Positions 30,946 to 47,534 of a stretch of DNA of 64,000 nucleotides are shown here, piece by piece. A program made the translations under genes and the position numbers. The notes below the pieces were generated by a model. It worked only from the letters and a program-made list of their open reading frames with translations, ran no database searches and was not told the origin of the DNA. How positions within the stretch are numbered: the stretch's first letter is position 1; each line of letters opens with the position of its first letter. Source of the stretch: a virus; IMG/VR virus record IMGVR_UViG_3300036760_001167, positions 1 to 64,000 of that record. One strand, given 5' to 3'.

Positions 30946-30976
30946 CTGTCTCCTTGGCAGTGCGCTAGTTCTAGCA

Positions 30977-30996
30977 CCCTCATCTTACACCGCGGC
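30977..30996 (-). promoter_or_regulatory. Putative late promoter upstream of the portal gene
   Basis: CCCTCATCTTACACCGCGGC, identical to 26593-26612. Confidence 0.65.
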
Positions 30997-31007
30997 CAGA
31001 CCGGCCC

Positions 31008-31316
31008 TTAGTCCGAGCCCGAGTCCGGGGTGGCGGGCACGGCGCCGGCCCAGCCGCGGTAGCGGTGCCCGCGCTCGGAGGCGGTCAGGCCGCCCCGGAT
31101 GCCGTAGCTCGGGGCGCCGCCGGCGCCGTCGTGGGCCGAGCGGGCCAGGCACTCCTCGCGGATCTGGCACGCGCCGCAGAGCTCGAGCGCCTCGAGGATC
31201 CGGAGCGGGTCCGGAAGCCGGCCGTCGTCGGCCGCGTTCTCCACCTCGAAGAAGCCCTCCGGGTCGGGGGCGTCGACGCACTCCGCGAGCTCTGCCCACC
31301 AGACCCTCTCGAGCAC
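31008..31316 (-). CDS. WhiB-family transcription factor
   Basis: W...AEC...FF...C-x2-C-x5-C...GIRGGLT-x2-ER. Confidence 0.88.
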   Translation of the reverse strand: MLERVWWAELAECVDAPDPEGFFEVENAADDGRLPDPLRILEALELCGACQIREECLARSAHDGAGGAPSYGIRGGLTASERGHRYRGWAGAVPATPDSGSD

Positions 31317-31323
31317 GCCGCGG

Positions 31324-31662
31324 CTACTCGTCGGTCTCGGTGAGCCACTCGACCAGGGCCGGGTTCTCGCGGAGCGCCGCGAGGAGGAAGGCGTCGATCG
31401 CGTTGATGAACTGCTCCTCCTCCTTGGCCGGCATCTTGAGGCCCGCGCGTTCGACGCAGTGGTGCATCAGCTCGTGGACTACGACCGCGCGCTGCCCGTT
31501 CCTGGTCTGGCCCTTCGCGACGCGGATCACGTTGCCGCCGTAGTCCCCGCCGATCTCGTAGCCGACCGCGAACTGCCCGATGCTCCTGAGCCACCGGATC
31601 CTGACCACCTGGCCGTCGACGTGGATCCTGTCCGGCCGCGTCTCCTTCGAGCTCCCGTTCAT
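31324..31662 (-). CDS. Small HExxH metallopeptidase-like protein
   Basis: VVVHELMHH followed by a downstream EE. Confidence 0.6.
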   Translation of the reverse strand: MNGSSKETRPDRIHVDGQVVRIRWLRSIGQFAVGYEIGGDYGGNVIRVAKGQTRNGQRAVVVHELMHHCVERAGLKMPAKEEEQFINAIDAFLLAALRENPALVEWLTETDE

Positions 31663-32510
31663 GCGTACTGTCCCGGCCTCTCCTCATCGTCGGCCGAGCT
31701 CGCCCGCCCGGCGTTCATCGCCTTGAGGAGCCGCAGCGTCTCGTCGTAGTCCGAGCCGATCACCTGCGTGGAGACCAGCAGCTCCTTCAGGTGGGCGAGC
31801 GACATCCCCTCCGTGTCCTTGACCATCCGGTCGACGTCGACGCGCACGCCCTCCGGGACGAGCGACCGCAAGTACTCGCCGCGCGCCGGCGCGGTCGGGT
31901 GCCCGATCTTGAAGCGCTTGTCGAAGCGGCTCGGCCGGTTCGCGATGCGCGGCGCCAGCACCTCGATGTAGTTGGTCGTCGCGAGGAAGACCACCTTCGG
32001 GTACTTCTCGACACCGTCCAGCAGGTTGAGCACCGCGGACTCATTCTCGTTGCGGCCCGCCAGGATCGCGTCGAGGTCCTCCATCAGCACGACGACGCGC
32101 GCCTCCGGCTGGATCGCGCGGATCTGCCGCAGCGCGATGTGCATGAGGTCCGGGCCGGGCCAGGTGATGACGAACCCGCCCGCCGCGATCACGTCCTGCG
32201 CGACGAGGGAGAGCGTGCTGGTCTTGCCGGAGCCGGGCGGGCCGTAGAGCAGGATCCCGCGCTTGTGCGTCATGCCGAACTTCTCGTACAGCTCGCCGCG
32301 CTCCCAGAACTGCTGGATCTCCGTCACCACCGCGTCGCCCGCGGTGCCGGGCAGCCGGAGCAGCTTGTCCGTGCCCATCTCGGCCCTGGTGAAGAAGAGC
32401 GTGCCGTTGGTGACCTGCACGTCGTAGAGGCCGGCGGGCATGACGTCGACCGTGTCGCTGACCGCGTAGTACATGCCGTTCGCGAAGCCCCACTGCGAGA
32501 CCAGCGGCAC
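31659..32510 (-). CDS. AAA+ ATPase
   Basis: KRGILLYGPPGSGKT (Walker A), VLMEDLD (Walker B), LNLLDG, ATTN, RPSRFD; GTG start after GGGAGG. Confidence 0.92.
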   Translation of the reverse strand: MPLVSQWGFANGMYYAVSDTVDVMPAGLYDVQVTNGTLFFTRAEMGTDKLLRLPGTAGDAVVTEIQQFWERGELYEKFGMTHKRGILLYGPPGSGKTSTLSLVAQDVIAAGGFVITWPGPDLMHIALRQIRAIQPEARVVVLMEDLDAILAGRNENESAVLNLLDGVEKYPKVVFLATTNYIEVLAPRIANRPSRFDKRFKIGHPTAPARGEYLRSLVPEGVRVDVDRMVKDTEGMSLAHLKELLVSTQVIGSDYDETLRLLKAMNAGRASSADDEERPGQYA

Positions 32511-32648
32511 GTCCCTCCCCTTCCTTGCCCGCTCCGTCACGTTGGTGACGCGGGGAACCCACCCCGCGCCGCGGCCGCTCCCACGACTCCTCGACACCGG
32601 CCGCCTTGAACCGTGCCGGTCCGTGGCAGCCACGCGGCCTTCCCTGCG

Positions 32649-32721
32649 TCCCCGGAGAAGGACTCGAACCCTCGGCCGTCGCGTTAGGACCGCGCCGCTC
32701 TTTCCTCTGAGCTACCCGGGG
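32649..32721 (-). tRNA. tRNA-Arg (CCU)
   Basis: Manual cloverleaf: CCCCGGG-TA-GCTC AGAGGAAA GAGC-G-GCGCG GTCCTAA CGCGA-CGGCC-GAGGG TTCGAGT CCTTC-TCCGGGG-A; CCA not encoded. Confidence 0.88.
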
Positions 32722-32727
32722 CTGAGC

Positions 32728-32753
32728 GGGAGGGCCGCCCTCGCGGCCCTCCC
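32728..32753 (-). terminator. Hairpin between the surface protein gene and the tRNA
   Basis: GGGAGGGCCGC-CCTC-GCGGCCCTCCC, an 11-bp stem. Confidence 0.55.
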
Positions 32754-32782
32754 GTCCTGCTTGGCTCCGATACCTTACCTCG

Positions 32783-33802
32783 TTACCTGCCTCCCCGCGT
32801 CACCGACGCGATGGACCGCTTCCGCGTGAGCGCGAGCGCGCCCAGGCCGAGCAGCGTCAGGAGCCCCATGCCGATCGCGGGCCGCGTGACGTTCGAGCCC
32901 GTCATCGCGAGGTCGCCGCCGGACGGCGGGCCACCCGCGAAGGTCGGGATCGGAGGCGCCGGCGTCCAGGTGGACTGCCAGCAGGGGAACTGGTCCGCCG
33001 GGCACGCCTTGGGCGGCGGCGTCGGCGAAGGGGTCTGGCAGCCGGCGTTGTCCACCGTGAGCGTCCGCACGTCGCCGCCGTTGAACGCGGCCGTGACCAC
33101 GGTCCCGTTCGCGAGCTGGCCGAGGTCCACGTCCGTCGGGTTGACGGAGATGGTCACGTCGGTGAAGACGCCGTCGACGCTGTAGTACGCGTTCCCGGTG
33201 CCCTCGAACCTGATGAACGTGTCCGTGCAGCTCGAGAAGATGAACGCCTCGGGCGTCGCGGGCGGTGGCGGCGGGGTCTGCGTGCCGATCGGCACGCACT
33301 GCCCGTCGTTGTTGAGCTCGTACCCCTCCGGGACCGTCGCCTGGTCGCCCTCGATGTTCGGGCAGACGTCGACGGGCGGGGGCGTGGTCGTCAGCGGCAC
33401 GCAGTCGCCGTTGTCGTCGATCACGTCGCCCTCCGGGACCGTCGCCTGGTCGCCCTCGATGTTCGGGCAGACGTCGGTCGGCGTGTCGCCGGACGGGCAG
33501 TCGCTCGCGGACGGGCTCTCCTGGCCGACGTCGAGGGCCAGCACGAAGCTCCGGCCCTGCGCGTCGTTGAAGTACAAGCCCACCACGACCGGGTCCTCGC
33601 CGATCGCGTTGAAGTCCACGTCGATCGGGTTCTGGCCGGTCTGCAGCGTCTCGTTCACGCCGGGCGTCCCGACGTACTTGCAGACGAACGCCTTGTGCGG
33701 CGCGGCCGTCGCGTTCGCGGCCATGATGTTCGCCCCGATCGGCAGGAGCACCACGGCCGTCACGGCAAGCGCCGCGAGCAGCTTGTTCCTTGTCCTCTTC
33801 AT
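32783..33802 (-). CDS. Sortase-anchored (LAXTG) cell-surface protein
   Basis: Signal peptide MKRTRNKLLAALAVTAVVLL; two DVCPNIEGDQATVPEG repeats; Pro/Thr linkers; C-terminal LAMTG, hydrophobic helix and RKR. Confidence 0.85.
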   Translation of the reverse strand: MKRTRNKLLAALAVTAVVLLPIGANIMAANATAAPHKAFVCKYVGTPGVNETLQTGQNPIDVDFNAIGEDPVVVGLYFNDAQGRSFVLALDVGQESPSASDCPSGDTPTDVCPNIEGDQATVPEGDVIDDNGDCVPLTTTPPPVDVCPNIEGDQATVPEGYELNNDGQCVPIGTQTPPPPPATPEAFIFSSCTDTFIRFEGTGNAYYSVDGVFTDVTISVNPTDVDLGQLANGTVVTAAFNGGDVRTLTVDNAGCQTPSPTPPPKACPADQFPCWQSTWTPAPPIPTFAGGPPSGGDLAMTGSNVTRPAIGMGLLTLLGLGALALTRKRSIASVTRGGR

Positions 33803-33848
33803 CTCCGTCTCCTCTCGCGCAGGCTTGTGACCTGCCTCCATCCGCATC

Positions 33849-34088
33849 TTACCTGGATGCGGCCGCCTTGTACACCCCCACCCGCTCTGCCACTGCGGCG
33901 AAGCCGGCGTGGATCGCGCTGGCCGCGCAGGCCCACGCCTCGGCGGCGCAGCTCTCGCCGTGGAACTCGAAGCGGGCCTCGTGCGGGCGGATGCCCGCGG
34001 CGAGGTCGCCCTTGTCCCGCACCGTCACGACGAAGTAGTCCACGCCTCCATCGTAGTGCCTCGTCGCCGCCTCCCTCGTCGCCCTCAT
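33849..34088 (-). CDS. Small hypothetical protein (MRATREAAT...)
   Basis: ATGA overlap with the tadG-like stop. Confidence 0.45.
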   Translation of the reverse strand: MRATREAATRHYDGGVDYFVVTVRDKGDLAAGIRPHEARFEFHGESCAAEAWACAASAIHAGFAAVAERVGVYKAAASR

Positions 34089-34780
34089 GCCGACAGCCAG
34101 ACGTGCGGGCTCGCGTCGTGCGGGCAGTCGACGGCCGGGTCGATGAAGTAGCTCTGGTTTGACTGCGGCACCGACGCGATCACGAAGGAGTCCTGCGCGT
34201 CGTTGAAACCGGTCGTCCCGTTCCACGGGAGGCCGCTGTGCCAGTCCTTGAGGTCGGAGCTGTTCACGCTCCTCCAGCCGCTCGCTGACACGCTGAGCCT
34301 CTCGGGGTTCCCGACGTACTTGCAGACGTAGACCTGCTTGTCGGCCCCGTTCACGGGGTGGAGCACCGCGGGCGTCAGCCCGTTCAGCCGCCACGAGCCG
34401 GTCGCCGCCACGGTGACGGTCCTCGAGTTGGAGAGGCCCAGGACCGGCGCGAAGTACAGCGGCTGCGTCGACGTGAACGTGACCGAGACGCTGCCGGTCA
34501 CGTTGTTGCACTGGCTGAGGTTCATCGTCCAGGTGAAGCCCGCGGCATGCGGCGCGTTCACCGGGAAGATCGCGAGCGCGTCCGCCTGCGCGGCCGGCGC
34601 GCCCAGCCCCTTCGAGCACTTGAGCGCGGCCGCCAGCGCGGCCGCGTCGGCGCCGTTGACCATCTCTCGCCGCCTGTACAGCATCCCGCCGACGTCGACC
34701 GTCAGCGCGACCGCGCCCATCATCACGACCAGCACGAGCGCCGTGACGACCGCGACGACGCCCTCCTCGCGGCGCCTCAT
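34085..34780 (-). CDS. TadG-like Flp pilus minor pilin
   Basis: MRRREEG|VVAVVTALVLVVMMGAVALTVDVG...NGADAAALAAA, the Tad N-terminal motif. Confidence 0.88.
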   Translation of the reverse strand: MRRREEGVVAVVTALVLVVMMGAVALTVDVGGMLYRRREMVNGADAAALAAALKCSKGLGAPAAQADALAIFPVNAPHAAGFTWTMNLSQCNNVTGSVSVTFTSTQPLYFAPVLGLSNSRTVTVAATGSWRLNGLTPAVLHPVNGADKQVYVCKYVGNPERLSVSASGWRSVNSSDLKDWHSGLPWNGTTGFNDAQDSFVIASVPQSNQSYFIDPAVDCPHDASPHVWLSA

Positions 34781-35169
34781 CGCTCGCACCTGAAGGTCGC
34801 CGCGATGTTCGTCGCGATGTGGAAGTCCGGGAGCAGCGGGATCGAGATCACGATGCCCTGGCCCCCGTTCAGCAGGCCCGTGTTGAAGCTCGCGGTCGAG
34901 TCGACGCCGGCGCCGTCGCAGGAGGTCACGAGCACCTGGGCGGCGGGCACGAGCCCTGCCGAGGTGTCCGAGACCTTCTGCTGGACGGTCGCGACGCAGG
35001 TTCCGCCGGGACAAACCGCGCCGGTGCGGGCGCCCTCGCGCACCGCGCCGCGGATGGTCTGGAGCTGCATGAAGCCCAGCCCGAACCCGATGACGCCGAA
35101 GACCAGCATGAACAGCAGCGGCGCGACGAGCGCGAACTCGACCGCCGCCGCCCCGCGCTCGCGCCTCAC
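34777..35169 (-). CDS. tadE: TadE-like minor pilin
   Basis: RRERG|AAAVEFALVAPLLFMLVFGVIGFG...AVREGAR. Confidence 0.9.
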   Translation of the reverse strand: MRRERGAAAVEFALVAPLLFMLVFGVIGFGLGFMQLQTIRGAVREGARTGAVCPGGTCVATVQQKVSDTSAGLVPAAQVLVTSCDGAGVDSTASFNTGLLNGGQGIVISIPLLPDFHIATNIAATFRCER

Positions 35170-35261
35170 TTCGAGACCGCCCGCGCGAAGAGCGAGAACG
35201 CTCCCCACACCATCACGTTCGCGGCCACTCCCACGAGCAGCCACGTCTTGAAGTTCTTCAT
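35166..35261 (-). CDS. 31-aa membrane peptide
   Basis: MKNFKTWLLVGVAANVMVWGAFSLFARAVSK; ATGA/GTGA overlaps with rtcB and tadE. Confidence 0.55.
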   Translation of the reverse strand: MKNFKTWLLVGVAANVMVWGAFSLFARAVSK

Positions 35262-36502
35262 CGCGTGCCTCCTGTCTTCCGGCGCCTGTCGTCGACGCCC
35301 TTGTAGTTCGCGATCGCGCGGAGCCTGTAGTCGACCCGCACGAGGTCGGCCTGGTCGGCCATTACCGTCTCGACGTCCTTGTACGCCTGCGGGCTCTCGT
35401 CCAGCAGGCTCGCCGCGTCGCCGTCCTGCCAGGCGACGCCCTCCATCCGCGCCGCGAAGTCCTCGAGCGCGACCTCCTTCCTGGCCCTGCCGCGCGACAT
35501 CACGCGGCCCGCGCCGTGCGAACAGCTCTCGTAGGACTCGGGGTTCCCGAGCCCGCTCACGACGAAGCTCGCCTGGCCCATGGCGCCGGGGATCAGGCCG
35601 CGGCTCGAGACGTGCGCGGCGATCGCGCCCTTGCGCGTGACGTACGCGTGCCGCCCGAGCTCCGCGACGCCCTCGAAGCTCACGTAGTTGTGGTGGCAGT
35701 TCACCTCGTCCTCGATCAGGAGGCGCTTCCCGGCGACCTCCTCGAGGGCGGCGTGGGCGCGGCGCAGGATCTGCCGACGGTTCTCGAGCGCGTACCGCTG
35801 CGCCCAGGAGACGTCCGCCACGTAGGCCGCGAACTCGCTGCCGCCGCGGTCGAGCCAGGCCAGGTCGAGCTCCGGCACCGTCTCGCCGGCCGCCGCGCGC
35901 TCCGCGCTGGGGTGCGGCTTGAGCGGCACGTCGGCGCCGTGGAGCAGCGCTGCGGCGTCGCCGTAGACCCGCGCCAGCTTGTTCCCCGCGCCGCGCGAGC
36001 CGGAGTGCAGCAGGATCCACACCTGCCCGAGCTCGTCGACGCTGAGCTCCACGAAGTGGTTCCCCGCGCCGAGCGTGCCGATCTGCCGGCCCGCGAGCGG
36101 GACGTCGTCGACCCTCGACGGCGCCGGGTCGCAGGCGATGAACTCCGCCGCCTCGTCGGACATCGCCCTGTCCCAGTGCCCCAGCCCCGCCGGGACGAGC
36201 CGCCCCACAGCCTCCACCCAGGCCGCGGCGTCGCCGTCGCCCAAGTCGCCCAAGTCCAGCGCCAGCCTGCGCGCGGCCATGCCGCAGCCGATGTCCACGC
36301 CGACCGCCATCGGGATGACCGCGTCCTCGGTCACGAGGACGCTGCCGATCGTGGCGCCGTGGCCGAGGTGCGCGTCCGGCATCAGCGCGACGGGCAGGCT
36401 CAGGATCGCGAGCTCCGCGGTCCGCTCCGCGGCCTCGCGGGCGTTGTCATCCAGGATGCTGGCCCAGCTCCGGACCCTGCCGTTCGCGAACGTCTCACGC
36501 AT
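35258..36502 (-). CDS. rtcB: RtcB RNA ligase
   Basis: MPDAHLG, GVDIGCG, GTLGAGNHFVE, HSGSRG, HHNY, RKGA, SHGAGR, DESPQAYK. Confidence 0.96.
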   Translation of the reverse strand: MRETFANGRVRSWASILDDNAREAAERTAELAILSLPVALMPDAHLGHGATIGSVLVTEDAVIPMAVGVDIGCGMAARRLALDLGDLGDGDAAAWVEAVGRLVPAGLGHWDRAMSDEAAEFIACDPAPSRVDDVPLAGRQIGTLGAGNHFVELSVDELGQVWILLHSGSRGAGNKLARVYGDAAALLHGADVPLKPHPSAERAAAGETVPELDLAWLDRGGSEFAAYVADVSWAQRYALENRRQILRRAHAALEEVAGKRLLIEDEVNCHHNYVSFEGVAELGRHAYVTRKGAIAAHVSSRGLIPGAMGQASFVVSGLGNPESYESCSHGAGRVMSRGRARKEVALEDFAARMEGVAWQDGDAASLLDESPQAYKDVETVMADQADLVRVDYRLRAIANYKGVDDRRRKTGGTR

Positions 36503-39500
36503 CTACTCCTCCGTCCCTCAGGATTCCCTCGGCGTCGCTCAGCACGCCGCGCAGGGCGGCGACCAGCACCTGCGAGGTCTCATGCTCGGGGTGCAGCCTG
36601 AGCATGTGGGTCGTCCACGCCTCGATGGCGAGGCGCTCCGCGTCCTCGTGGTCTTGCGGGTGCCAGGTCTCGCACACCTCGCAGCGCAGCTCCAGCACCT
36701 CGTCATCCACGGCCCAGCCTCCCCTCGCTCCAGAACTCGAGCTCGCCGCACGTCGCGGGCGGGCTCGCGTCCATCGCGAGCACCAGGCCCGGCACGATCT
36801 CGCGCTCGTACTGCTCCAGCTCGACCTTGTCCGCCGCGTCTTCGGGCATCGTCATCTCACTGCTCCTCCCGCTCGCGGCGCTCCAGCGCCAGGTACCACT
36901 CCTCGTCCAGGTCCGACTCGCGCGCCACCTCGCGGGCGAGCAGCGCGTCGACGCGGTCCTGCGTCGCCTCCATCAGCGCGTCGCCGGCGCGGGCGCCGAG
37001 CTCGAGCGGCGGGAGGAAGACCTCGAGCCTGCAGAAGCCGCGGCCGAGCGGGTCGACGTCGAAGCACCAGGCGAGCACCCTCGTCCCTCATGAGAAGCCG
37101 CCGACCCGGCCCGCTGCGTCCGCGAGCTCGAACGCGACCCAGGCAAGCGCCGCCACGACGGCGAGCACGCAGAAGACCCGCGCCCAGATCATCGTGGGAC
37201 CGCCAGGATCCGGGCCTCGGCCTCGTCGTACTCCTCGCGGTGCCGCTCCGGCAACGAGGAGAACTCGACCGTGTAGCCGTGCCGCTGGCCAGGGACCAGG
37301 CGGTCCGCGAGGGTCTCGCCCTCGGCCTCGGCCGCGTCGCGCAGCCTGGCCCTCAGCGCGTCGCCGAACTTTCCCTGGTTCCTCATGACGCCTCCTCCGT
37401 GTCCGCGATCGCCCGGCCGGTCGCCCTGACCCAGTCCGCGATCTGCTCGATGGTGCCCGCGTCCCACTCCTCGCCGCTCAGGTACTCGGCCATCTGGTCG
37501 AGCGCCCTGCCGTCCGGCAGCGGCGCCCACGGGTTGCCCGTGACCGCCAGCGCGCGGCGCGCGGCGTCGTCGCTCGGGTAGAGCGCGCACAGGTCGCAGC
37601 GGTACGGCTGCTCGACCTCGCCCTGGTCGCCCGGCCGCACCGTGAAGATCCCGGCGTTGGGCTGGGTGCCGCAGGCGTCGCACGCGCTCGGCTGGCTCAT
37701 CCGAGCCTCGTCCCGAGCACGCTGCCCTCCGCCTTGATGACCTCGGCAACGTTGTCCCGCTTCGCGTCCGCGCGCTCGTGGCGGCGCTCCTCGCGCATCC
37801 ACGCGGGCCGCGGCTCGCGGCGCTCCTGGCGCGGTGCCAGCTCGTCCTCGAGGCGCTCCATCTCCGTCGCGTTCACTCTGTGCCTCCTTGGTCGCTCTCG
37901 TGCCTGTGGCCGGACGGTGTTCCGTCCGACTCCGGGACGCAGTCGCCGCGGGCGCAGCCCGCGAAGACCGCGCGCCTCGCCTCGCAGTGGCCGCAGCCCT
38001 CGCGGTGCGACGCCTGGTGGTGCGCGTCGTCCCTGGCCGCGGCCGCCACCTCGCGCAGGACCGGCGCCTCCGATCGGCTCAGCCTGGCCTGGTCGGCCTC
38101 CGCGCTCTCGCCGGTCAGCTGGCGCGCGGCGGCGGCCTCCTCGACCTCCTCGACCGTCTCCTCGTCGACGTGCCCGGCCTCGACCAGCTCGCGCAGCGTC
38201 TCGGCGCGGCCGACCACCCAGTCGAGCTCGGCCATCGTCAGGCAGCCGGTATTCTGCAGCCCCGTCGCGCGCCACTCGGCGTCGACCCTGGCGCGGATGC
38301 TCTCGACGTCCATCATCAGAACCATCCTCCTTCGCGGATCCTCGTCCTCATGTCCTCGATGCTCAGGCGGGCGGCCATGAGCTTGTCGGCCGCGGTCGGG
38401 CGGTGCGCCGCGTGGTCGCGGGTCGCCTCGGCCCTCCGCCAGAACCAGCCGGAGTCCTCGGACCAGCGGCCGAGCTTGCTGCAGAGCCACTCCGCGAGCT
38501 CGCAGTCCGTCAGTCGCGCGGCGTTCGCGGCCTTGACGACCGCAGCGTCGACGCCCGCCTGGGCGCTGCGCATCAGGTGCCGCTCGCCGCCGTACCCGTA
38601 GTCGCTCTGCCGGTCGATGTCGGCGGCCGTGAAGTCGCGGCGGCCGATCGCGTCCGGGTTGTCGCAGGGCGCTCCCACGCCGTGCGTGCAGGTCTCAGGC
38701 ATGGGGCGCCTCCAGTCCGCGCAGCGCGTTGGCGAAGCGCAGCCGGGCGTCGGCGTCGTCGGCGCTCAGGCCCTCGGCGATGAGCGCGACCGCGTCGCGG
38801 CCCTCGAACTCGACGACGGACCAGCCGGCGTCAGTGACCTCGGTGCCGTACCAGCGCGCCCTCATGACTGGGCCTCGCGGGCCAGGTGCCGCTCGACGTC
38901 TAGCTCGGAGAACTTGTAGCGCTTGCTGTCGTCGAGGCACAGGGCGGAGATGCCGTACTTGGTCGAGCGCGGGTTCACGCCCACGATCTTGAAGCGCCGC
39001 ACGCCCACGGTGAACTCGGCGCCGAAGTGCTCGGGCCGCAGGCCGAAGGACGGCGCGTACCGCTCGAACTCGAGCTTGGCCGCGTCGGCCTGCTCGAAGA
39101 CCACCTTGTTGGGGCGGAAGGAGCTGCCGCCGCCGACCTTGACCGTCAAGCCGTGCGCCTGGGCGATCGCTGCGAGCGCTTGCTGCGCCTCTGTCGCGAG
39201 CGTCCTGCAGAGTGCCTTGTCCATCCCGTGCCTTGTCCATCTCGTCCATCCCTTCTGTCGAGCGCGGTCCGTCCGCCTCGCGGTTCCGCGCGTTCTTCGC
39301 CGCGCGGAGCCGTCAAGCGTCAGGCGTAGATGCTGGCGGAGAAGCGGCGGGCAACCTCGGCGTTGATGGCGTCGACTGCCTCTTGGTCGACGTACGCGCC
39401 GCCCAGGTTCTCGTGCTCCCAGACGACGGTGCTGCGGACGTCGGCGAGCTTGTCGCTGTTCATGGCCTTGAAGTTCCGGAGTCTTCCTGTGGGTCCGCGT

Positions 39501-39511
39501 CCTGAGTTCAT
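36495..39511 (-). other. Cluster of about 10-12 small hypothetical genes, several Cys/His-rich
   Basis: Chained short ORFs with stop/start overlaps, e.g. 36495..36710, 38316..38702, 38862..39224, 39320..39511; no recognised family. Confidence 0.6.
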
Positions 39512-39555
39512 CCTGCGTCTCCTTCGTTCTCGAGCGGCCGTTCCGCTCTCTAGCT

Positions 39556-39653
39556 CTATTATCGGCAGCGCGCCCGCGGTGAGTACCGGCCGAAAGGGCC
39601 AGAACCGCCCTCCCCGGCAGCCTAGGTCGAAGGTCTGGTATGCGCCATACTAG
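39556..39653 (-). promoter_or_regulatory. Conserved ~97-bp promoter element, copy 3
   Basis: CTAGT...AGACCT..CCTAGG...GGCCC..TCGG.CGGT...GCTGCCGATAAT. Confidence 0.75.
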
Positions 39654-40309
39654 GCCGGGTTCCCGCTGCCCAGGGCCTCGGCGCGGTGCTTCCGGCACAG
39701 GGGCACCTTGCCCGCCCGCTCCGGCTCGATGTCGAGGCCCGCCCGCTCCGCCGCCTCGGGCTCCGCGGTGCCCGCGTAGTAGTGGCCGCAGCCCTTGACG
39801 CAGCAGACCCGGATCGTCCGGCCCTTGCCGCCTCCGACGCGGCTGCCGCTGCCCGCCTGCGCCGCCGATCGCAGCGCCTCCGCCGGGAACGTCGTCGCCG
39901 CGCCCGTCGTCTTGCCGCTGCGCGCCTCGCTCTCGACGCGGTGGACGCGGGCGCCCATGCCGCAGTAGTCGCGCGGCCACGCGTACAGGTTGCTCACGCC
40001 GATCCCCTCGCCCTTCAGGTGCGGCCTGCCGTCCGCCTCCCAGTGGTGGAACTCCCAGCGCTCGCCGGGGTCGGACCAGGGCAGGTCGACGATCAGGACG
40101 TCGCCGGGCCGGAAGTCCGGGCGCTCGAACCCGAGCAGCTCCGGCGCGTGCTCCGCCGCGCAGTGGAGCGGGCAGAAGCCGCACGGGTCGAGCCGCTCCT
40201 CGCGGCAGTCGGCGTGGAAGCAGCGCGGGTAGTGCTCGCGGCAGAAGCCGCGCGGGCTGATCGCCCCGGCCTTGCACTCCTCCTCGACGCACCGCGGCTT
40301 GGCCGTCAT
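39650..40309 (-). CDS. Cys/His-rich zinc-finger-like hypothetical protein
   Basis: C-x4-C...C-x2-H repeats at both termini. Confidence 0.55.
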   Translation of the reverse strand: MTAKPRCVEEECKAGAISPRGFCREHYPRCFHADCREERLDPCGFCPLHCAAEHAPELLGFERPDFRPGDVLIVDLPWSDPGERWEFHHWEADGRPHLKGEGIGVSNLYAWPRDYCGMGARVHRVESEARSGKTTGAATTFPAEALRSAAQAGSGSRVGGGKGRTIRVCCVKGCGHYYAGTAEPEAAERAGLDIEPERAGKVPLCRKHRAEALGSGNPA

Positions 40310-40502
40310 GCCTGGCCGCCGATCGCCCGGACCTGGTCGGCGCGGAGCTCGCGCCACTCGCCGCGCTCGTCGATGTGGCGCCAGAACGCGATCGACCGCG
40401 CGGCGGCGGCGCGCGACGGCGCGGCGACGACGTAGTCGGCCTGCACGATCCAGGGCTTCGCCTCGAGCCGCTCCGGCGCCGTGTGGAGCCAGTGCCAGGT
40501 CC

Positions 40503-41051
40503 TCACAGCTCGGCCCTCGCGAAGCGCCAGCCGAAGGAGGCGGCGAGGCTTCCCTCCATCTCGTCGCGGTAGGCGTGGAGGGGCGTGCCCTCCAGCGCGG
40601 TCCTCTTCGCGAGGATCGCGTCCACGGTCCGGCCCAGGATGACCGCGAGCTCGGCGTCGGTGACGCCGCGGTCGGGGTCGCAGGCCAGCAGCGCGTCCTC
40701 GTGCGACCACTCCTCGCCCCGGCGGTCGGCGGTGTCGATGGACGTGGCGTTGAGCCGCTTCTGGGCGATCGCCTTCTTGGCCCTCTGCTCCTCGGGCGTC
40801 CGCATCCGGCCGTCCTTGCGGGGCACCGTCGCGAGCAGGTCGAGCACGTCGTCGACGCAGACCCAGTGCCCGCCCGCGTTGACCTCGGCGCGCACGACCC
40901 CAGCGCTCACCCACTTGTGGACGGTGCTCTCGCACACGGGCAGCGCGCGGGCCGCGCCCGCGGGGTGGAGCCAGCGCGTGCCGTCGGCCTTCCTGCGCTT
41001 GACGTCGGCGGCCCTCACTCGGGCACCTCCCGCCAGCAGGACTTGCAGCAC
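40503..41051 (-). CDS. Helix-turn-helix DNA-binding protein (excisionase/MerR-like)
   Basis: WLHPAGAARALPVCESTVHKWV..G and a second HTH-like segment DAELAVILGRTVDAI. Confidence 0.65.
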   Translation of the reverse strand: MLQVLLAGGARVRAADVKRRKADGTRWLHPAGAARALPVCESTVHKWVSAGVVRAEVNAGGHWVCVDDVLDLLATVPRKDGRMRTPEEQRAKKAIAQKRLNATSIDTADRRGEEWSHEDALLACDPDRGVTDAELAVILGRTVDAILAKRTALEGTPLHAYRDEMEGSLAASFGWRFARAEL

Positions 41052-41917
41052 AGGACGTCATCGTGGTAGGTCGTGGCGGCGCCGCAGCAGGGGCTGAGGC
41101 ACTCGCAGCGCGAGCCGTTGGGGTAGGTGCCGAGGCAGACCTCGCAGGTGAGCAGGCCGCCGCGGACGTCGTCGTCCTCGCCGGAGCTCAGCCGCCGCGC
41201 CCACTCGCGCTCGGTCAGGGGCGCGTCGCCGAAGTGGCCCCGCACGCCGTGGGCGTGCTCGCCCTGGATCCCGGACCCGCACCAGCACGCGCTCATGCCG
41301 CGCTCCTGAGTGCTAGCGCCTCGTCGAGGGGCACGTCGACGCCGAGCTCCCACGTGACCTCGCAGAACATCAGGTCGAAGACGGCCGCGGCCTCGTCGTT
41401 GCCGACGGGCCGGCCGATCGCCGCGAGCGCGTCGAGCCGCTCGACGGCCTTGGCCTCGGGCATGCGCCGCATCATGGGGTCGCCGCCTTGCAGCCGTCGC
41501 ACGTGGGCTCGCGGTCGGTAGGCTCGCACAGAGACGCGAACGCCCACTCGCCGCAGCGCCAGTTGAGGAGCTGCTGGGGAGGAGGGCAGCCCGCGGGCGC
41601 CTTCATGCCGGTGGACTCGACGGCGTGGATGACGCCGTCGAGGTGGCGGGCGTTCTTGAGGCGATCGCTCATGAGTTGTCCACCCTGTGCTCGGCCTTGC
41701 AGGCGGGACACGCGTCGCCGTCGCCGCAGTCGTCGCAGCCGCGGCGGTCGTCGCGCTCGTCGTCGCGCTCGTACCAGGGGAGCTCGTAGCGGCAGCCGAC
41801 GACGTGCGTCTCGCCGCTCAGCACGTCCCGGCCGCACAGTGGGCAGGTGGGCACTGGCTCGGCCGCGGGCAGGTAGAGCTCGCTGCGGCCGGTGAAGGTC
41901 CTGATTGCTCCGAACAT
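41015..41917 (-). other. Small Cys-rich hypothetical genes
   Basis: About four short overlapping ORFs with CxxC motifs. Confidence 0.5.
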
Positions 41918-41955
41918 CTTGCGCTCCTTCTCTCGGGGTCCGCTTGCTGTCTACT

Positions 41956-42053
41956 TCATTATCGGCAGCGGCGGGCCCCGGGAGCACCGCCCGATCGGGC
42001 CGTTTCCGGCCCTGGGGCGGCCTAGGCGGAAGGTCTAGTGTGGCGCGCACTAG
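41956..42053 (-). promoter_or_regulatory. Conserved ~97-bp promoter element, copy 2
   Basis: Same blocks and spacing as copies 1 and 3. Confidence 0.75.
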
Positions 42054-42389
42054 TGGTCGTGCGCCCGCCGGTCAGGACCTGGGTGATGACGCAGCGCGCG
42101 CGGCCCTGCACCCACGTGACCTCGGCGCGGAGCACCAGCACGCCTCGCCGCCTCGACGGCACCTCGTAGGTCATGCCGGCACCGCCACGTAGGCCGCGTC
42201 CTCGAGCGGGATGCCGCGGGCGTCCATGAACCTGGCGCCGTAGCAGCCCCACACGCCCAGCATCTGGACGCAGTAGATCGCCTCGTGGCGCAGGCCCGCG
42301 AGCCTGCCTGCGGCGGAGCGGATGCTCGCCGGGACTCTCTCCTCCATCATCTTGACCTCCTTCTCTCGGGCCCACCTTACACCGTGTCG

Positions 42390-43425
42390 GCCGAGAAGGG
42401 AACGGGCGCCTCCCACCGCTGCCGCCGCTCACGCTCGGGATCGTCGGGCCGGCTCGACACCGAGCCACCCATCTCCGGCTCGCTGCGCGATCGCCCGCGC
42501 CTCGTCCGGTCACTCCGTCCACGCATGCTGCTCCGGCCTCACCCTTGCGGGCGGTGGTGCTGCGGCGCCCCGCTGGCGGCGGGCGGGTTGCGGGATCGGC
42601 CCGCCAAGTTGTGCCCGCTGCCAGCGGGGCGCCGCAGGTTCCTAGCGGCGCCTTACTCCGCCAGCCGGGCGGCGGCGGGCGACGTGTCCTCCGGCCCGCC
42701 AGCTCCCCGAAGGTCGCGATTACGCGGGGCGGTCGACTTCGCTGCCACACCGCCCGGATTCGGGCGGAGGTTCTGGCGGGACCGAGGGACGGCGGGCGGG
42801 TGCTACCGTCCGCAGCGGCGTCGGCTCTTGCGACTCTCAGGGTTCGTCTGGGCATCTAGGATCTCGCGTTCCCGCGTCGCCGCGGGGCAGCACGTCCACA
42901 GCGTGCGCCGCTTCACCAAGAGGGGAAACTATTCCGCCCAACCTGGGTCGGGAGTCTATCCGAGGCTTTACGACGACCTCGGTCCCGTTTCGCCGGACTT
43001 CACTTGACCGGCTTCGAGAGCGGCGGAGGTTCCCGGCGTACGGAGAACATCTCCCGCCGAACTACCTCGCGCTCGCTCTCGGAGCCGTTCAGGCTCCGTG
43101 CGGCCGATCGCTTGACCGGCTTCGAGAGCGGACCCGTGTGCCCACGTCCCTGGGGCTGCGCTCTCGCGCTCCCTGGGTTCCGGCTGGCCCAGCGCCTCTC
43201 GGCGCGCTGGCGGTTCGGCCTGGCCTTGCACCTCTGGTCTCGCTCTCGGAGCCGTTCAGGCTCCGTGTCTTGGCGCTCGGCGGGGAGTACGATGCCCCGG
43301 AACTCAGGGGGAATCCGGTCAGGCCCTGAGGGCCGCCGCGTACCTCCTGGAACCGCGGGCCCACTTCGCCCGCCGAGCCGGATCTGCTTCTGCCGCTCTG
43401 GCTTCCACGCTCCGGTCTGTTCGCC
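42390..43425 (-). ncRNA. Candidate ~1 kb structured non-coding RNA
   Basis: No convincing ORF; promoter element at the 5' side; many stems with GNRA/UUCG loops; duplicated junction module with compensatory changes. Confidence 0.65.
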
Positions 43426-43433
43426 TTACATCA

Positions 43434-43531
43434 TCATTATCGGCAGCCGTGCCCCCGCAGCGTACCGGCCGAAGGGCCCGAGATCGCCTGGGCGTCGGCC
43501 TAGGCCGGAGGTCTAGTGTGGCGCGTACTAG
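43434..43531 (-). promoter_or_regulatory. Conserved ~97-bp promoter element, copy 1
   Basis: Begins at the terL TAG stop and ends GCTGCCGATAAT. Confidence 0.75.
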
Positions 43532-45306
43532 ATCCTGATGCGCTGGCCCGGCTTCTTGGGCGCGGGCTTCTTCGCGCGGCGCCGCTCGTCGGCCTCGCGG
43601 CGGAGCCGGCGCGCGTAGGACTCCTGCGGCTCCGCGGGCTTCGGCTTCCGCTCGGGCCGCGGCGGCGCGGGCTGCTCCGCGGGCTCCGGCTGCGCGTCCT
43701 CGCCGGGCTTCGGGTCCGTCTCGCGCGCGTACGCGCTCCTCTTCTTGGGCTTCGCGCCCGCGGCGATCGCGTCGCCGCGCGCCTCCCACGACAGCGCGCC
43801 GGCCGCGGCGGCGTCGATCTTGTTCGGGGACATCGGCGCCTCCTTCGAGATCGTCCAGAGCTGCCGGCCCTCGTCGTCGTACGAGGCGATCGGCTTCCTC
43901 CGCGTGTTCTCGACGTGCCGCGCCATCACCTCGTCGCCGTCGTGCGTGACGTCGCCGGCCTTGATCGACGCGGCGTACTTGCGGACCATGATCGCGGCCT
44001 GCTTCGGCCGGGACATCAGCCACGCGACCACGACCTTGTCGCCGTACTTCCCCTGCCACCTGTCGAGCAGCGCCTCGATGTTCGCGTACTGCGAGCCGGG
44101 GTCGACGTAGACGCGCCAGACCGACCAGGTCTCCATCGCCTCGGAGAGCGTGCCGTCGACCTCGTCGAAGTCGTGCTCGTAGTCGTCGTTCGCGGTCTCC
44201 GGCTTGGTCCAGATCCCGAGCGGCCACTGCCAGCCCGAGTCGACCTCGGTGGCGACCATCGCGAGCGCGTCCTCGTAGCGGGCGCCGTCGACGCCGACCG
44301 TGACCAGCGAGCCGGGCTTCGGCTGCTCCCGCTCCCTCTTGAGCTTGCGCCAGCGCTCCCCGTCGAACGCGCGGTCCTCGCCGGGCACCACGCGGTTGAG
44401 GAAGTAGCGCTCCGCCTGCGCGAGCTCGCCGCGCTTGAGGAGGTCGTCGATCTCGGACGAGATCCGCTCGGTGTCGACCCACCAGCTCGAGCCGTACAGG
44501 TTCCTGAGGACGCGCATGCGCTCGCGCTTGTTCTTGATGGAGCCGCGGCCGCCCTTGCCCATCATCCTGAAGACGCCGACGCCGGACTCGTGGGTCGCCT
44601 GCGCGACGCTCTGCTCGCTCGGGTCCCACGCGTTGCCGGTCTCGAGGAAGCGGCCGCCCATGCCGGCCAGGTTGCGGCGCTGCGTGTCGGCGAGCTTGCG
44701 GCCGCCGTTGCGCTTGGTCCAGTCGTGCGCCTCGTCCTCGACCGCGAACGTGATCCGCTGCCCGAGCCGGCTCCGGGCGCTCGCGGTGACGGGCTCGATC
44801 TTGCCGCCGTTCGGGAGGTTGATCCTGGTCTCCCCGGTGTCCGGGATCTCCGCCTTGAGGTTGCCGAGCTCGATCATCGGCACCAGCGATCGCCAGACGT
44901 TGGCCGTCTGGTCCTCCGAGACCGCCGTGACCTGGATCCACGGCGTCGCCCACGGCCGGCCGACCGGCTCGCCGTCCGCGTCCCACCCGTCGAACAGCAC
45001 GGGGCCGAAGGACTCGACGATGATCATGGCCGCGGCGAAGGGCCCCTTGCCGAGCTTCTGCGGCTCGACGATCTGGCCGCCGCGGTTGTAGCGGAACGCG
45101 CCGCTCGGCTTGGTCAGGTCCTTGACCGCGTCCGGCTTCAGCTCGTAGAAGTTGAGGACGAACTCCTGCTGCCAGTCCGACAGCAGGAACGGCTCGCCCG
45201 CGAACTCGCCGTCGGGGATGACGCACAGGTCCTGGATCGCGTCGAGCACTGCCCACCCGAGCGTCGGCAGCTCGCCCTCCGTGCGCGGCCCGCGCCAGCC
45301 CGTCAC
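43528..45306 (-). CDS. terL: Terminase large subunit
   Basis: LSDWQ, PQKLGKGP (Walker A), AVSEDQT, AVEDEAH (Walker B), GVDGA..ED and SPNKIDAA (nuclease). Confidence 0.95.
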   Translation of the reverse strand: MTGWRGPRTEGELPTLGWAVLDAIQDLCVIPDGEFAGEPFLLSDWQQEFVLNFYELKPDAVKDLTKPSGAFRYNRGGQIVEPQKLGKGPFAAAMIIVESFGPVLFDGWDADGEPVGRPWATPWIQVTAVSEDQTANVWRSLVPMIELGNLKAEIPDTGETRINLPNGGKIEPVTASARSRLGQRITFAVEDEAHDWTKRNGGRKLADTQRRNLAGMGGRFLETGNAWDPSEQSVAQATHESGVGVFRMMGKGGRGSIKNKRERMRVLRNLYGSSWWVDTERISSEIDDLLKRGELAQAERYFLNRVVPGEDRAFDGERWRKLKREREQPKPGSLVTVGVDGARYEDALAMVATEVDSGWQWPLGIWTKPETANDDYEHDFDEVDGTLSEAMETWSVWRVYVDPGSQYANIEALLDRWQGKYGDKVVVAWLMSRPKQAAIMVRKYAASIKAGDVTHDGDEVMARHVENTRRKPIASYDDEGRQLWTISKEAPMSPNKIDAAAAGALSWEARGDAIAAGAKPKKRSAYARETDPKPGEDAQPEPAEQPAPPRPERKPKPAEPQESYARRLRREADERRRAKKPAPKKPGQRIRI

Positions 45307-45746
45307 AGCCGGCCCACCCGCTCGAGCTCGTCCTTGGCGGCGAGCACCCTCTTCGCCTGCTCCTCGGACCCGCCCTCGTGGTCGGGGTGCGCGGCCTTGA
45401 TCGCGGCCCTGAACGCAGCCCGCGCGTCCTCCACCGACGCGTCGGGGCCGATCCCGAGCACCCGGAGGGCCGCCTCGAGCTTCTGGTTGGCGAAGTTGAA
45501 CCCGCTGACCCGCCCGAAGCCCTCCGCGGCGTCGGCCCTGTCCTGCGCCTCCGTCCGCCCGCGCTCGTCGCCGACGAAGACCCGCTCGCCGCGCGCGTAG
45601 GCGTCGCGCTGCTCAGCCCGCATGCGCGTGTGGGGCCCGGGGAAGTGCCAGTCCCGGCAGTCGCCGCACCAGGGGATCTCGGTCTTGGTCCCGTAGCGCT
45701 CGTTGAAGATGTCGGCCGCGCTGCGCTTCGCCGGGCGTCCGCTCAC
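45303..45746 (-). CDS. J-domain (DnaJ-like) protein
   Basis: LRVLGI...ARAAFR...AAHPDHEGGS...AKDEL with an intact HPD; N-terminal CxxC-x2-WH. Confidence 0.85.
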   Translation of the reverse strand: MSGRPAKRSAADIFNERYGTKTEIPWCGDCRDWHFPGPHTRMRAEQRDAYARGERVFVGDERGRTEAQDRADAAEGFGRVSGFNFANQKLEAALRVLGIGPDASVEDARAAFRAAIKAAHPDHEGGSEEQAKRVLAAKDELERVGRL

Positions 45747-46177
45747 GACTGCACCCTCGGGACGTGGACCCGCGCCGGGCCCTTCGCCCTCGGCGCCGGC
45801 TCCTCCTCCTCCTCGATCGGCTCGTCCGTCTCCCAGCGCAGCTTCATCATCGCCATGGGCGTGAGGCCCAGCCGGTCCTCGAGCTGGCGCGCCTCGGCGC
45901 GGAGCTGCGGGTTCGCGTTCGACTGCTCGGACTCGACCAGGATCCGGACGTAGCGCGCGACCACCCGCACCCAGCCCAGCCGCTCCCACTCGCTCGCCTG
46001 GGGCGTCGCCCAGAGCTCCGACCAGACCGTCGCCTCCTCGATCGCCCCGATCAGTGGCTCGTCCAGCGGGAACGCGGGCGGCGGGCCCTTCCGGCCCTCG
46101 TACGGGAGCTGCCTGAACCCCGCGGTCGCCCTCCGGCGCCGGGTGAGCTCCGGGTCCTTCTTCGGGGGTCCGGGCAT
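45743..46177 (-). CDS. terS: Terminase small subunit
   Basis: MPGPPKK...WSELWATPQA..W...EARQLEDRLGLTPMAMMKLRW, typical of actinophage TerS. Confidence 0.85.
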   Translation of the reverse strand: MPGPPKKDPELTRRRRATAGFRQLPYEGRKGPPPAFPLDEPLIGAIEEATVWSELWATPQASEWERLGWVRVVARYVRILVESEQSNANPQLRAEARQLEDRLGLTPMAMMKLRWETDEPIEEEEEPAPRAKGPARVHVPRVQS

Positions 46178-46180
46178 CGG

Positions 46181-46480
46181 TCACAGCACCTCCCGGAGCC
46201 GGTCCGCGATGTGCTGCGCCGTCGGGTCGCCCGCCGCCGCCTGCGCCCGCAGGATCGGCTCCGCCATGCGGAGGAGCTCCCTCGCCCGGCGCGCCTTGCG
46301 GACCTCGTCCCAGCGCTTGTGCTGCGTCGCGCTGATCTTGCCGGCGCGGTCGAGCGGCGCCGGCCGATCGCCCGAGCCTGAGCTCGCCGGCGGGTGATCC
46401 TCGGCCTGGCCATCCTGGGCTAGGTCGACCGGCCTAGGCTGCGCGCGGCCGGCCTGGCGCTGCCTGCGGGACCGTCCCAT
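46181..46480 (-). CDS. Hypothetical basic protein
   Basis: 99 aa ORF between the late-promoter motif (46487-46497) and terS. Confidence 0.45.
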   Translation of the reverse strand: MGRSRRQRQAGRAQPRPVDLAQDGQAEDHPPASSGSGDRPAPLDRAGKISATQHKRWDEVRKARRARELLRMAEPILRAQAAAGDPTAQHIADRLREVL

Positions 46481-46609
46481 GTAGCTATCTTACACCGAGT
46501 AACTCCCGGCCGGATCCCGTTCACAGGGGCTCGGGCCTACTACGCCGGTCGGTCGGTGAAAGACAGGTCTTTGCCAAGCCCCGCCCTCCATTCGGACGGT
46601 GACCTTCAC

Positions 46610-47025
46610 CCAAGGACCTAGGCCGCGGCCTCAGCGACTACAGACCTAGGTCCTATCAGGCCGCGCATCGGACCTAGAAGACGTAGCTCAACGTGACGCC
46701 CGCCCGATGTGACTAGACCGATATGGCCACGGGCCCTGTGGCCTAGGGCGGCCGATCGGGCCGGCACGATCGGGCAGCCTAGGCCGTGTTGCGATCCGCG
46801 ATCGCCCAAGGGCCTAGGCCGTCGACGCCCTGCGCGACGATCGGGCGGCCTACGCCCGGCGAGATCGAAGGGCCTAGGCCGCTCCCGTCTCTGGCGACTT
46901 TCCGCAGGCTAGGCCTTGCGGTCTTGCGGCGAGATCGAAGGGCCTAGGCCGGCGACTTTCGGGCCGGCGACTTCCGGCCTGTTAGGCCCGGCGACTTTCC
47001 GGCCGATAGCTGGCGACTTTCCGGG
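46610..47025. repeat. CCTAGG/GGCGACTT repeat-rich region, putative genome end or packaging site
   Basis: At least seven CCTAGG; 25-bp direct repeat at 46857-46881 and 46927-46951; five GGCGACTT; lies between HNH/MTase and terS. Confidence 0.65.
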
Positions 47026-47534
47026 ACCATGACCTGCCAGCGCCCGGGCAGCGGCTCCGGGTCGCCTGGCCGCATCACGACGATCGCGGGCGCGAACGGC
47101 GCCTGCACACGCCCGCCGTCGAAGCGGATCCGGCCGCGGACCAGCCTCACCTCCGAGCCCGCGCAGCTCGCCTGCCACCACCGCGTCTCGGTGCGCGCGG
47201 GGAGCAGGCAGACGACCACGATCCCGCCGCGCGCCTCGAGCCTCGCGCGCGCGACGAAGTCCGGGGTGTGCTTGGAGTAGGGCGGGTTCAGGAAGGCGGC
47301 CTGCCCGCGCCTGGCCCAGCGGCCCGGCGAGAGCGCGTCGGCCATGAAGCCGCCGGGCCCGATCCACCGGGCGGCCTTGTGGTTGGCCTCGTTCGCGGCC
47401 GCGTCTACGGCGAAGCGGAACTCCCGGTCCAGCTCGTCGTAGAGCTCCCGCGGGGTCCCGTAGTCCGTCTTAGCCGCGGCGGTCGCCGGGTTCGCCCCGC
47501 CGAACGTCGTCGCGCTACCCCGGCCTCCTGCCAC
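46944..47534 (-). CDS. Phage N6-adenine DNA methyltransferase (Dam-like)
   Basis: TPRELYDELDREFRFAVDAAA, FLNPPYS, LLPARTETRWW, GRIRF. Confidence 0.9.
   Translation of the reverse strand: MAGGRGSATTFGGANPATAAAKTDYGTPRELYDELDREFRFAVDAAANEANHKAARWIGPGGFMADALSPGRWARRGQAAFLNPPYSKHTPDFVARARLEARGGIVVVCLLPARTETRWWQASCAGSEVRLVRGRIRFDGGRVQAPFAPAIVVMRPGDPEPLPGRWQVMVPESRQLSAGKSPGLTGRKSPARKSPA

Follow-up and report, generated by a model that had tools for sequence, protein, structure and literature searches.

Downstream of the terminase large-subunit gene (terL) of an uncultivated phage with 72% GC, we observe a kilobase-long stretch that is non-coding and self-complementary, lies on the coding strand, and carries a cassette that is repeated elsewhere in the genome. 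The most economical reading is that of a transcribed untranslated leader or spacer of ~1.08 kb whose hairpins would serve in RNA processing, stability or termination. We favor this reading tentatively, and we infer transcription, its start point and every functional step. A first-pass annotation had proposed a new large structured phage RNA at this place; the observation behind it is real but overstated.

A non-coding kilobase downstream of terL

The phage is represented by a 106,510-bp IMG/VR virus record with direct terminal repeats, recovered from a sediment metagenome, and the 64-kb window analyzed here is the first part of that record. The minus strand carries almost all genes, and a second sediment sample (X2) contains the identical sequence, as do the contigs of the likely source run (X1), so that neither run shows variation. 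The terL gene (43528..45306, minus strand, 592 aa) was identified by tblastn to annotated terminase large subunits and has a GC3 of 1.00; its best annotated relative is that of Streptomyces phage Kromp (42.6% by tblastn). The gene for the small terminase subunit is at 45743-46177. With its stop codon at 43528, terL lies directly upstream of the stretch in the direction of transcription. The first gene on the 3′ side encodes 59 aa of no known family (42171..42350, minus strand; no Pfam or PHROG match) and is enclosed in an ORF at 42171-42416 with a GC3 of 0.87. Its ATG at 42350, behind a GGAGG, is the next real gene start after the stretch. This start is preceded by a leader with a ribosome-binding site (CCGAGAGAAGGAGG, 42348..42373, minus strand), which shares 91% identity with the next cassette's leader (41915-41937).

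The gap between the terL stop codon and the next start codon (42351-43527) is devoid of coding signal. In 180-nt windows, the per-phase GC spread is 0.08-0.22 over ~42350-43450 compared with 0.4-0.6 in the flanking genes. Measured from the predicted transcript start, ~7 nt after a −10-like GATAAT, to the next start codon, the untranslated stretch covers ~1080 nt (42351..43430, minus strand) with a flat GC-phase signal throughout. In a genome-wide scan, 42256-43591 is the longest run without GC3 signal in the 64-kb window, followed by 46336-47131; the only longer run in the genome is a tRNA array at 95.3-97.8 kb. The stretch had been described as the largest without genes, which holds within the window but not for the genome.

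ORFs inside the stretch have no Pfam or PHROG family match, and the GC3 bias of genes in this genome (~0.95) is absent. The only near relative, X3, is a 4,188-nt contig from a 2024 soil run whose terL is 91% identical at the amino acid level. Among the differences listed, X3 has indels of 1, 1, 3, 1, 1, 2 and 3 nt within the stretch, along with a net deletion of 89 nt. Since a gene would not tolerate such non-triplet indels, we rejected a protein-coding gene, and the gene-free stretch reported at first pass is real. One Arg-rich ORF of 49 aa inside it (42377-42526, minus strand) has an ATG, a weak Shine-Dalgarno sequence and a GC3 of 0.84. In X3, a 1-nt deletion affects its start region and other sequence takes the place of its 3′ part, which makes it an unlikely gene.

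Other features of the genome were noted in passing. The tRNA array (L018 9410-11560, genome ~95.4-97.6 kb, outside the window) has its tRNA genes, at least 17 of them, on the minus strand; no other part of the genome goes so far without a protein-coding gene. The second non-coding stretch of the window, 795 nt at 46336-47131 upstream of the small terminase gene, is a possible packaging or regulatory region; it holds 8 of the 15 genomic CCTAGG sites, about five GAAAGTCGCC-like repeats and recurrent GGCCTAGGCCCTTCGATCTCGCC units. One terL relative, P0021 (861 aa), carries a LAGLIDADG-type domain (PF14528), suggesting that an intein or homing endonuclease has entered terL within this group of phages.

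A repeated promoter-like cassette

The stretch is opened by a promoter-like cassette of 98 nt (43434..43531, minus strand) that begins at the terL stop codon. It consists, in order, of a CTAGT..ACTAG palindrome, CCTAGG, a GC hairpin, and GCCGATAAT with the −10-like GATAAT (43441-43436). Four copies are found in the genome (43434-43531, 41956-42053, 39558-39642 and 89018-89084); aligned, they all have CTAGT..ACTAG, ACCT, CCTAGG, the GC hairpin and GCCGATAAT in common, and the spacing from CCTAGG to GCCGATAAT, counted on the alignment, is exactly 54 nt in each. GATAAT is invariant among the four; its six genomic occurrences are all on the minus strand, the two outside the cassettes being at 91705 and 94503. 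From these features we infer that the cassette acts as a promoter, and it may be a phage-specific regulated one. The first-pass annotation had placed a promoter cassette at one boundary of the stretch; the repeated cassette on the 5′ side agrees with this, its promoter activity being predicted. A consensus scan for sigma-70-type promoters (−35 and −10 boxes 16-18 nt apart) found none, with no −35 match at the cassette, and no promoter motif was seen on the plus strand.

What follows the cassette differs from the other copies. The cassettes at 41963 and 39563 have a ribosome-binding site and start codon within ~45 nt, and leaders elsewhere measure ~0-170 nt on a rough gene map, compared with ~1080 nt here. 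The first 40 nt 3′ of the cassette at 43441 align with the leaders of the other cassettes, with the ribosome-binding site spoilt and no start codon. The cassette features together with this spoilt leader make minus-strand transcription of the stretch likely. The leader or spacer reading is favored for the same reasons: the stretch sits in the minus-strand gene direction right after terL, the cassette recurs with its fixed spacing at such a distance from the next start codon, and the leader-like 40 nt have a spoilt ribosome-binding site and lack a start codon.

The spoilt ribosome-binding site and missing start codon are also what would be seen if the stretch were debris, a decayed cassette-plus-gene unit after terL that was padded by duplications and inversions at the edge of a mosaic block. 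Such debris could be passively transcribed and would have no function of its own. A cassette-like remnant without a −10 box upstream of the 59-aa gene is in line with this explanation, as is the chance-level folding of about half of the stretch, described below. We nevertheless consider it rather unlikely. The overall fold energy (z of about −6.8) and the exact 29-nt repeats are unlike plain decay, no residual protein similarity was found in Pfam or PHROG, and the sequence recurs unchanged in X2.

Hairpins, repeat modules and the question of strand

Three long hairpin elements, hairpin H and modules A and B, give the whole fold signal of the stretch. No inverted repeat of the 64-kb window surpasses hairpin H (42560..42637, minus strand), whose 25-bp arms (42560-42584 with 42613-42637) pair at 24 of 25 positions around a 28-nt loop containing a small hairpin. 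The perfect 17-bp helix of the first-pass annotation is in fact a perfect 18 bp (42560-42577 with 42620-42637) extending to these 24 of 25, and the other stems it named are all present at or near their places. With 24 of 25 bp, compared with a criterion of at least 20 bp of near-continuous duplex, the arms are long enough for a double-strand RNase, whose cleavage is a prediction only. Right after H lies a small GCAA-loop hairpin (42540..42556, minus strand) with one G.U pair on the minus strand. No U-tract follows H on the minus strand, and a terminator scan finds nothing there; an intrinsic terminator at H was rejected since the GC-rich stem has no T-run, U-less termination as in Actinobacteria not being readable from sequence.

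Modules A and B share a common architecture. Module A (43108..43267, minus strand) is composed of the repeat D4 (43239-43267), a 107-nt insert carrying two GAGA-loop hairpins, and the repeat D5 (43108-43131); module B (43000..43100, minus strand) is composed of D4 (43072-43100), a 48-nt insert and D5 (43000-43023). Between the modules, D4 is identical at 29 of 29 positions and D5 at 23 of 24, and the inserts are unrelated in sequence. In turn, D5 matches the inverted D4 at 17 of 20 positions, so the modules amount to four copies of one 20-nt motif arranged as two inverted pairs. No further occurrence of the 20-nt motif is found in the genome; its core, CGAGAGCG, has further copies. D4 also holds an operator-like 6+6 palindrome with a 5-nt spacer. 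On the 5′ side of the modules, a domain at 43276..43380 (minus strand) is predicted, in the MFE and centroid folds only, to form a long-range helix around a branched fold; its local z is ~0 and its sequence is ~96% conserved in X3. The best explanation of these patterns is that the stretch grew by local duplication and inversion of the 20-nt motif and is quickly remodelled by indels.

For the fold of 42440-43430, z is −6.8 (minus strand) and −6.9 (plus strand) with 20 shuffles each, compared with controls of +2.2 for a terL segment of equal length and −3.9 for the non-coding 46300-47150. In 200-nt windows, z falls below −3 only in 42500-42800 (about −4) and 42900-43300, and chance-level values are seen in 42300-42500, 42700-42900 and 43200-43500. 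Small tetraloop hairpins, counted with stems of 4 bp or more, are not above shuffles (11 compared with 8.0, P = 0.18). The stretch had been called packed with stems, which applies to about half of it and is reflected in the overall z; the rest, and the tetraloop hairpins, are at chance.

Equal z on both strands means that fold energy does not select a strand, and the remaining evidence on strand, and on RNA or DNA, conflicts. GNRA loops are found in 4 of 11 tetraloop hairpins on the minus strand compared with 0 of 11 on the plus strand (0.51 in shuffles, P = 0.002). The strand on which such loops read had been taken at first pass to point to RNA; however, two of the four loops, both GAGA, are copies of the core CGAGAGCG and the other two are overlapping. 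In the long helices, the transition mismatches number three (one in H, two in D4:D5), and each gives A.C on the minus strand and G.U on the plus strand. The versions of the module in A, B and X3 all gain 5-6 kcal/mol when folded as the plus strand. Such a pattern agrees with inverted DNA duplications on which selection for either RNA strand has left no strong mark.

These observations bring in an unlikely alternative in which the stretch acts at the DNA level. Proteins would bind the motif copies, the further copies of its core CGAGAGCG and the 25-bp inverted repeat as iterons or operators, or these repeats would form the ends of small inverted-repeat mobile elements, and inverted repeats in the DNA would yield the RNA structure only as a by-product. 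The alternative accounts for a fold signal that is the same on both strands, for mismatches that show no bias to G.U on the transcribed strand, and for a motif whose four genomic copies are all contained in the two inverted pairs. Binding sites or element ends would also fit repeats that are 100% (D4) and 96% (D5) identical between modules with unrelated DNA between them, as well as the D4 palindrome. Iteron or operator arrays and MITE-like elements likewise have a repeated motif, 20 nt here, in inverted pairs with a variable interior. Unlike them, however, the stretch has variable spacing, with the centers of the motif pairs 42 (X3), 71 and 130 bp apart and thus in no fixed helical phasing. 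No target-site duplication was seen at the module ends, and the adjacent genes include no initiator, transposase, replication or partition gene. Searches of viral contigs and genomes gave no exact match to D4, D5 or the hairpin arm, which argues against a spreading element.

The leader or spacer reading draws on the same hairpins, since H and modules A and B are long helices and GNRA loops are enriched on the minus strand only. We counted against it the lack of a sigma-70-type promoter or a U-tract terminator, a plus-strand fold that is equal or slightly better, and long-helix mismatches that form G.U on the plus strand.

The large RNA put forward by the first-pass annotation is a further alternative and, in our judgment, an improbable one. 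It would be a new structured non-coding RNA of ~0.87-1.08 kb with its own promoter that ends at H and acts in trans in an architectural, decoy or catalytic role. The order of elements is suggestive, as the promoter-like cassette is followed by 870 nt and then by the strongest hairpin of the window, and the GNRA loops favor the minus strand. The D4/D5 stems have variable tops, much like expansion segments, and a phage with RtcB and a large tRNA array invests in RNA biology. Against such an RNA, the fold signal is strand-symmetric and comes from three simple long hairpins in place of conserved junctions, their near-perfect helices look young, about half of the stretch folds at chance level, two of the GNRA loops are motif copies, and H has no U-tract. 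Its only homologue is the one near relative, in which the middle is remodelled, and it is absent at 65-71% terL identity. The claim is not supported, and we retain it as improbable. We consider it no less improbable that the RNA is a lineage-restricted one of ~0.9-1.1 kb, in which conserved D4/D5 stems carry swappable apical inserts of 15, 48 and 107 nt and which acts in trans, for instance as a decoy or scaffold. Such an RNA would be transcribed from a regulated cassette promoter of its own, would end at the 25-bp hairpin, and would form a new class unrelated to any Rfam family.

Relatives, precedents and the accessory block

X3 matches the stretch at ~96% over its 5′ 250 nt (43273-43523) and its 3′ 245 nt (42406-42651), and the middle between these conserved ends is 423 nt in X3 compared with 622 nt here. 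In X3, 43133 is joined to 43237 with 15 other letters between, yielding a single D4/D5 module in which a 15-nt top replaces the 107-nt insert. The rebuilt module still folds as hairpin, stem, hairpin, and 11% of shuffled inserts do equally well. Several deletions affect the left arm and loop of hairpin H in this relative, which also has 694 other letters in place of the 59-aa gene. The changes listed fall partly on unpaired and partly on paired positions. The terL DNA differs from that of X3 at 164 of 2204 nt, and the ends of the stretch are at least as conserved. That X3 keeps both ends and one D4/D5 stem with its top swapped favors the leader or spacer reading; the shuffled inserts that match the X3 fold were counted against it. 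For debris, the large indels and the swapped downstream gene are as expected, but the conservation of both ends is not.

Relatives at 65-71% terL identity (L006, L007/L019 and L020) share no DNA with the stretch by blastn or nhmmer, so any role would be dispensable in the wider group. In L006 (71%), terL is followed by a 168-nt gap and then by a 641-aa gene, the presumed portal, which is homologous to 29188-30882 here. In our phage, terL and the presumed portal homologue are separated by an accessory block of 12.6 kb (30946-43527), of which the stretch is the first kilobase. The absence of the stretch from these relatives, and a 168-nt gap where this phage has a 12.6-kb block, also agree with debris at the edge of a mosaic block. 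The block encodes an RtcB RNA ligase (35258-36502, Pfam E = 7e-91), a tRNA-Arg(CCT) (32648-32721, Rfam scan), small genes, an HTH protein and pilin-like genes. Together with the tRNA array, RtcB and the tRNA-Arg suggest an investment in tRNA supply and repair.

The first-pass annotation could not match the stretch to a known RNA by eye, and the Rfam check agrees. We scanned the 64-kb window against Rfam 15 at gathering thresholds, covering GOLLD, ROOL, HEARO, OLE, raiA, YrlA, group I and II introns and riboswitches; nothing was found at the stretch and only the tRNA-Arg at 32649-32721 passed. At E-values up to 10, the region 41800-43800 gave only chance matches, the best at 26.6 bits compared with a cut-off of 67. 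A large non-coding RNA here would thus be new. The stretch has no blastn match among phages and plasmids, and no homologue turned up among metagenome contigs. Exact scans of 2.9 million viral contigs found none of D4, D5 and the strict cassette pattern, and a scan of 185,579 species genomes for the D4 core and a 22-mer of the hairpin arm was likewise negative. Relaxing the cassette pattern gave 41 single matches in contigs of 22-68% GC, which we attribute to chance since none of the 41 contigs resembles the cassette or the stretch by blastn. A six-frame tblastn without composition correction returned composition-driven noise only and was discarded.

Several other identities were rejected. A CRISPR repeat mimic would have a spacing of ~30-40 nt, whereas the 29-nt D4 copies are 167 nt apart, with no exact genome match. 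A type III antitoxin (ToxI-like) would have tandem repeats; those here are dispersed and inverted, and the 59-aa gene downstream has no family. A decayed intron, a retron, a DGR template, a Y-RNA partner of RtcB, a cos or pac site and a replication origin each lack their defining feature here.

In the leader or spacer reading, a minus-strand transcript would start at the cassette abutting the terL stop codon. The stretch would then be the very long leader of the first small accessory gene, the 3′ trailer of the terS-terL message, or both. Modules A, B and H would act in cis as RNase III-type processing sites, 3′-end stabilizers or partial terminators, and these hairpins would set the packaging operon apart from the accessory block of 12.6 kb that follows. 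In phage T7, RNase III hairpins between genes cut polycistronic messages and leave protective 3′ hairpins. The T7 hairpins are likewise long, imperfect and intergenic, and belong to a one-strand transcription programme; however, they are single hairpins of ~60 nt compared with a 1-kb stretch here, where processing by a host RNase III is a prediction.

GOLLD and ROOL often adjoin tRNA genes, whereas the stretch is ~52 kb away from the tRNA array. Like the stretch, they are associated with phages or prophages and extend over several hundred nt as non-coding RNAs, but each is a conserved family in which multi-way junctions and many covarying pairs are found, while the stretch has simple hairpins and belongs to no family (PMC5737381; 10.1101/2024.12.08.627333). 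The nearest precedent in kind is offered by the non-coding intergenic regions of actinophages, to which no sequence relationship is expected. In actinophage WC1, such regions are the most highly transcribed loci, and similar non-coding RNAs were reported for mycobacteriophages D29 and Kampy (PMC10986025). WC1 nc_1 to nc_3 and the D29 and Kampy RNAs likewise lie between genes on the transcribed strand of an actinophage, with unclear function and no Rfam family; the transcription of the WC1 regions was seen by RNA-seq, whereas the stretch is known here from its sequence (PMC10986025). This precedent also favors the leader or spacer reading.

The stretch is a candidate and not a discovery, as it was read from one uncultivated phage and one near relative. 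If transcribed and functional, it would be an unusually long non-coding element built from hairpins, added to the few such elements known in actinophages, and it would show that such an element can grow by motif duplication and inversion together with insertion into hairpin tips. The stretch also marks the boundary of a 12.6-kb block insertion and may show how phages insulate or express their cargo.
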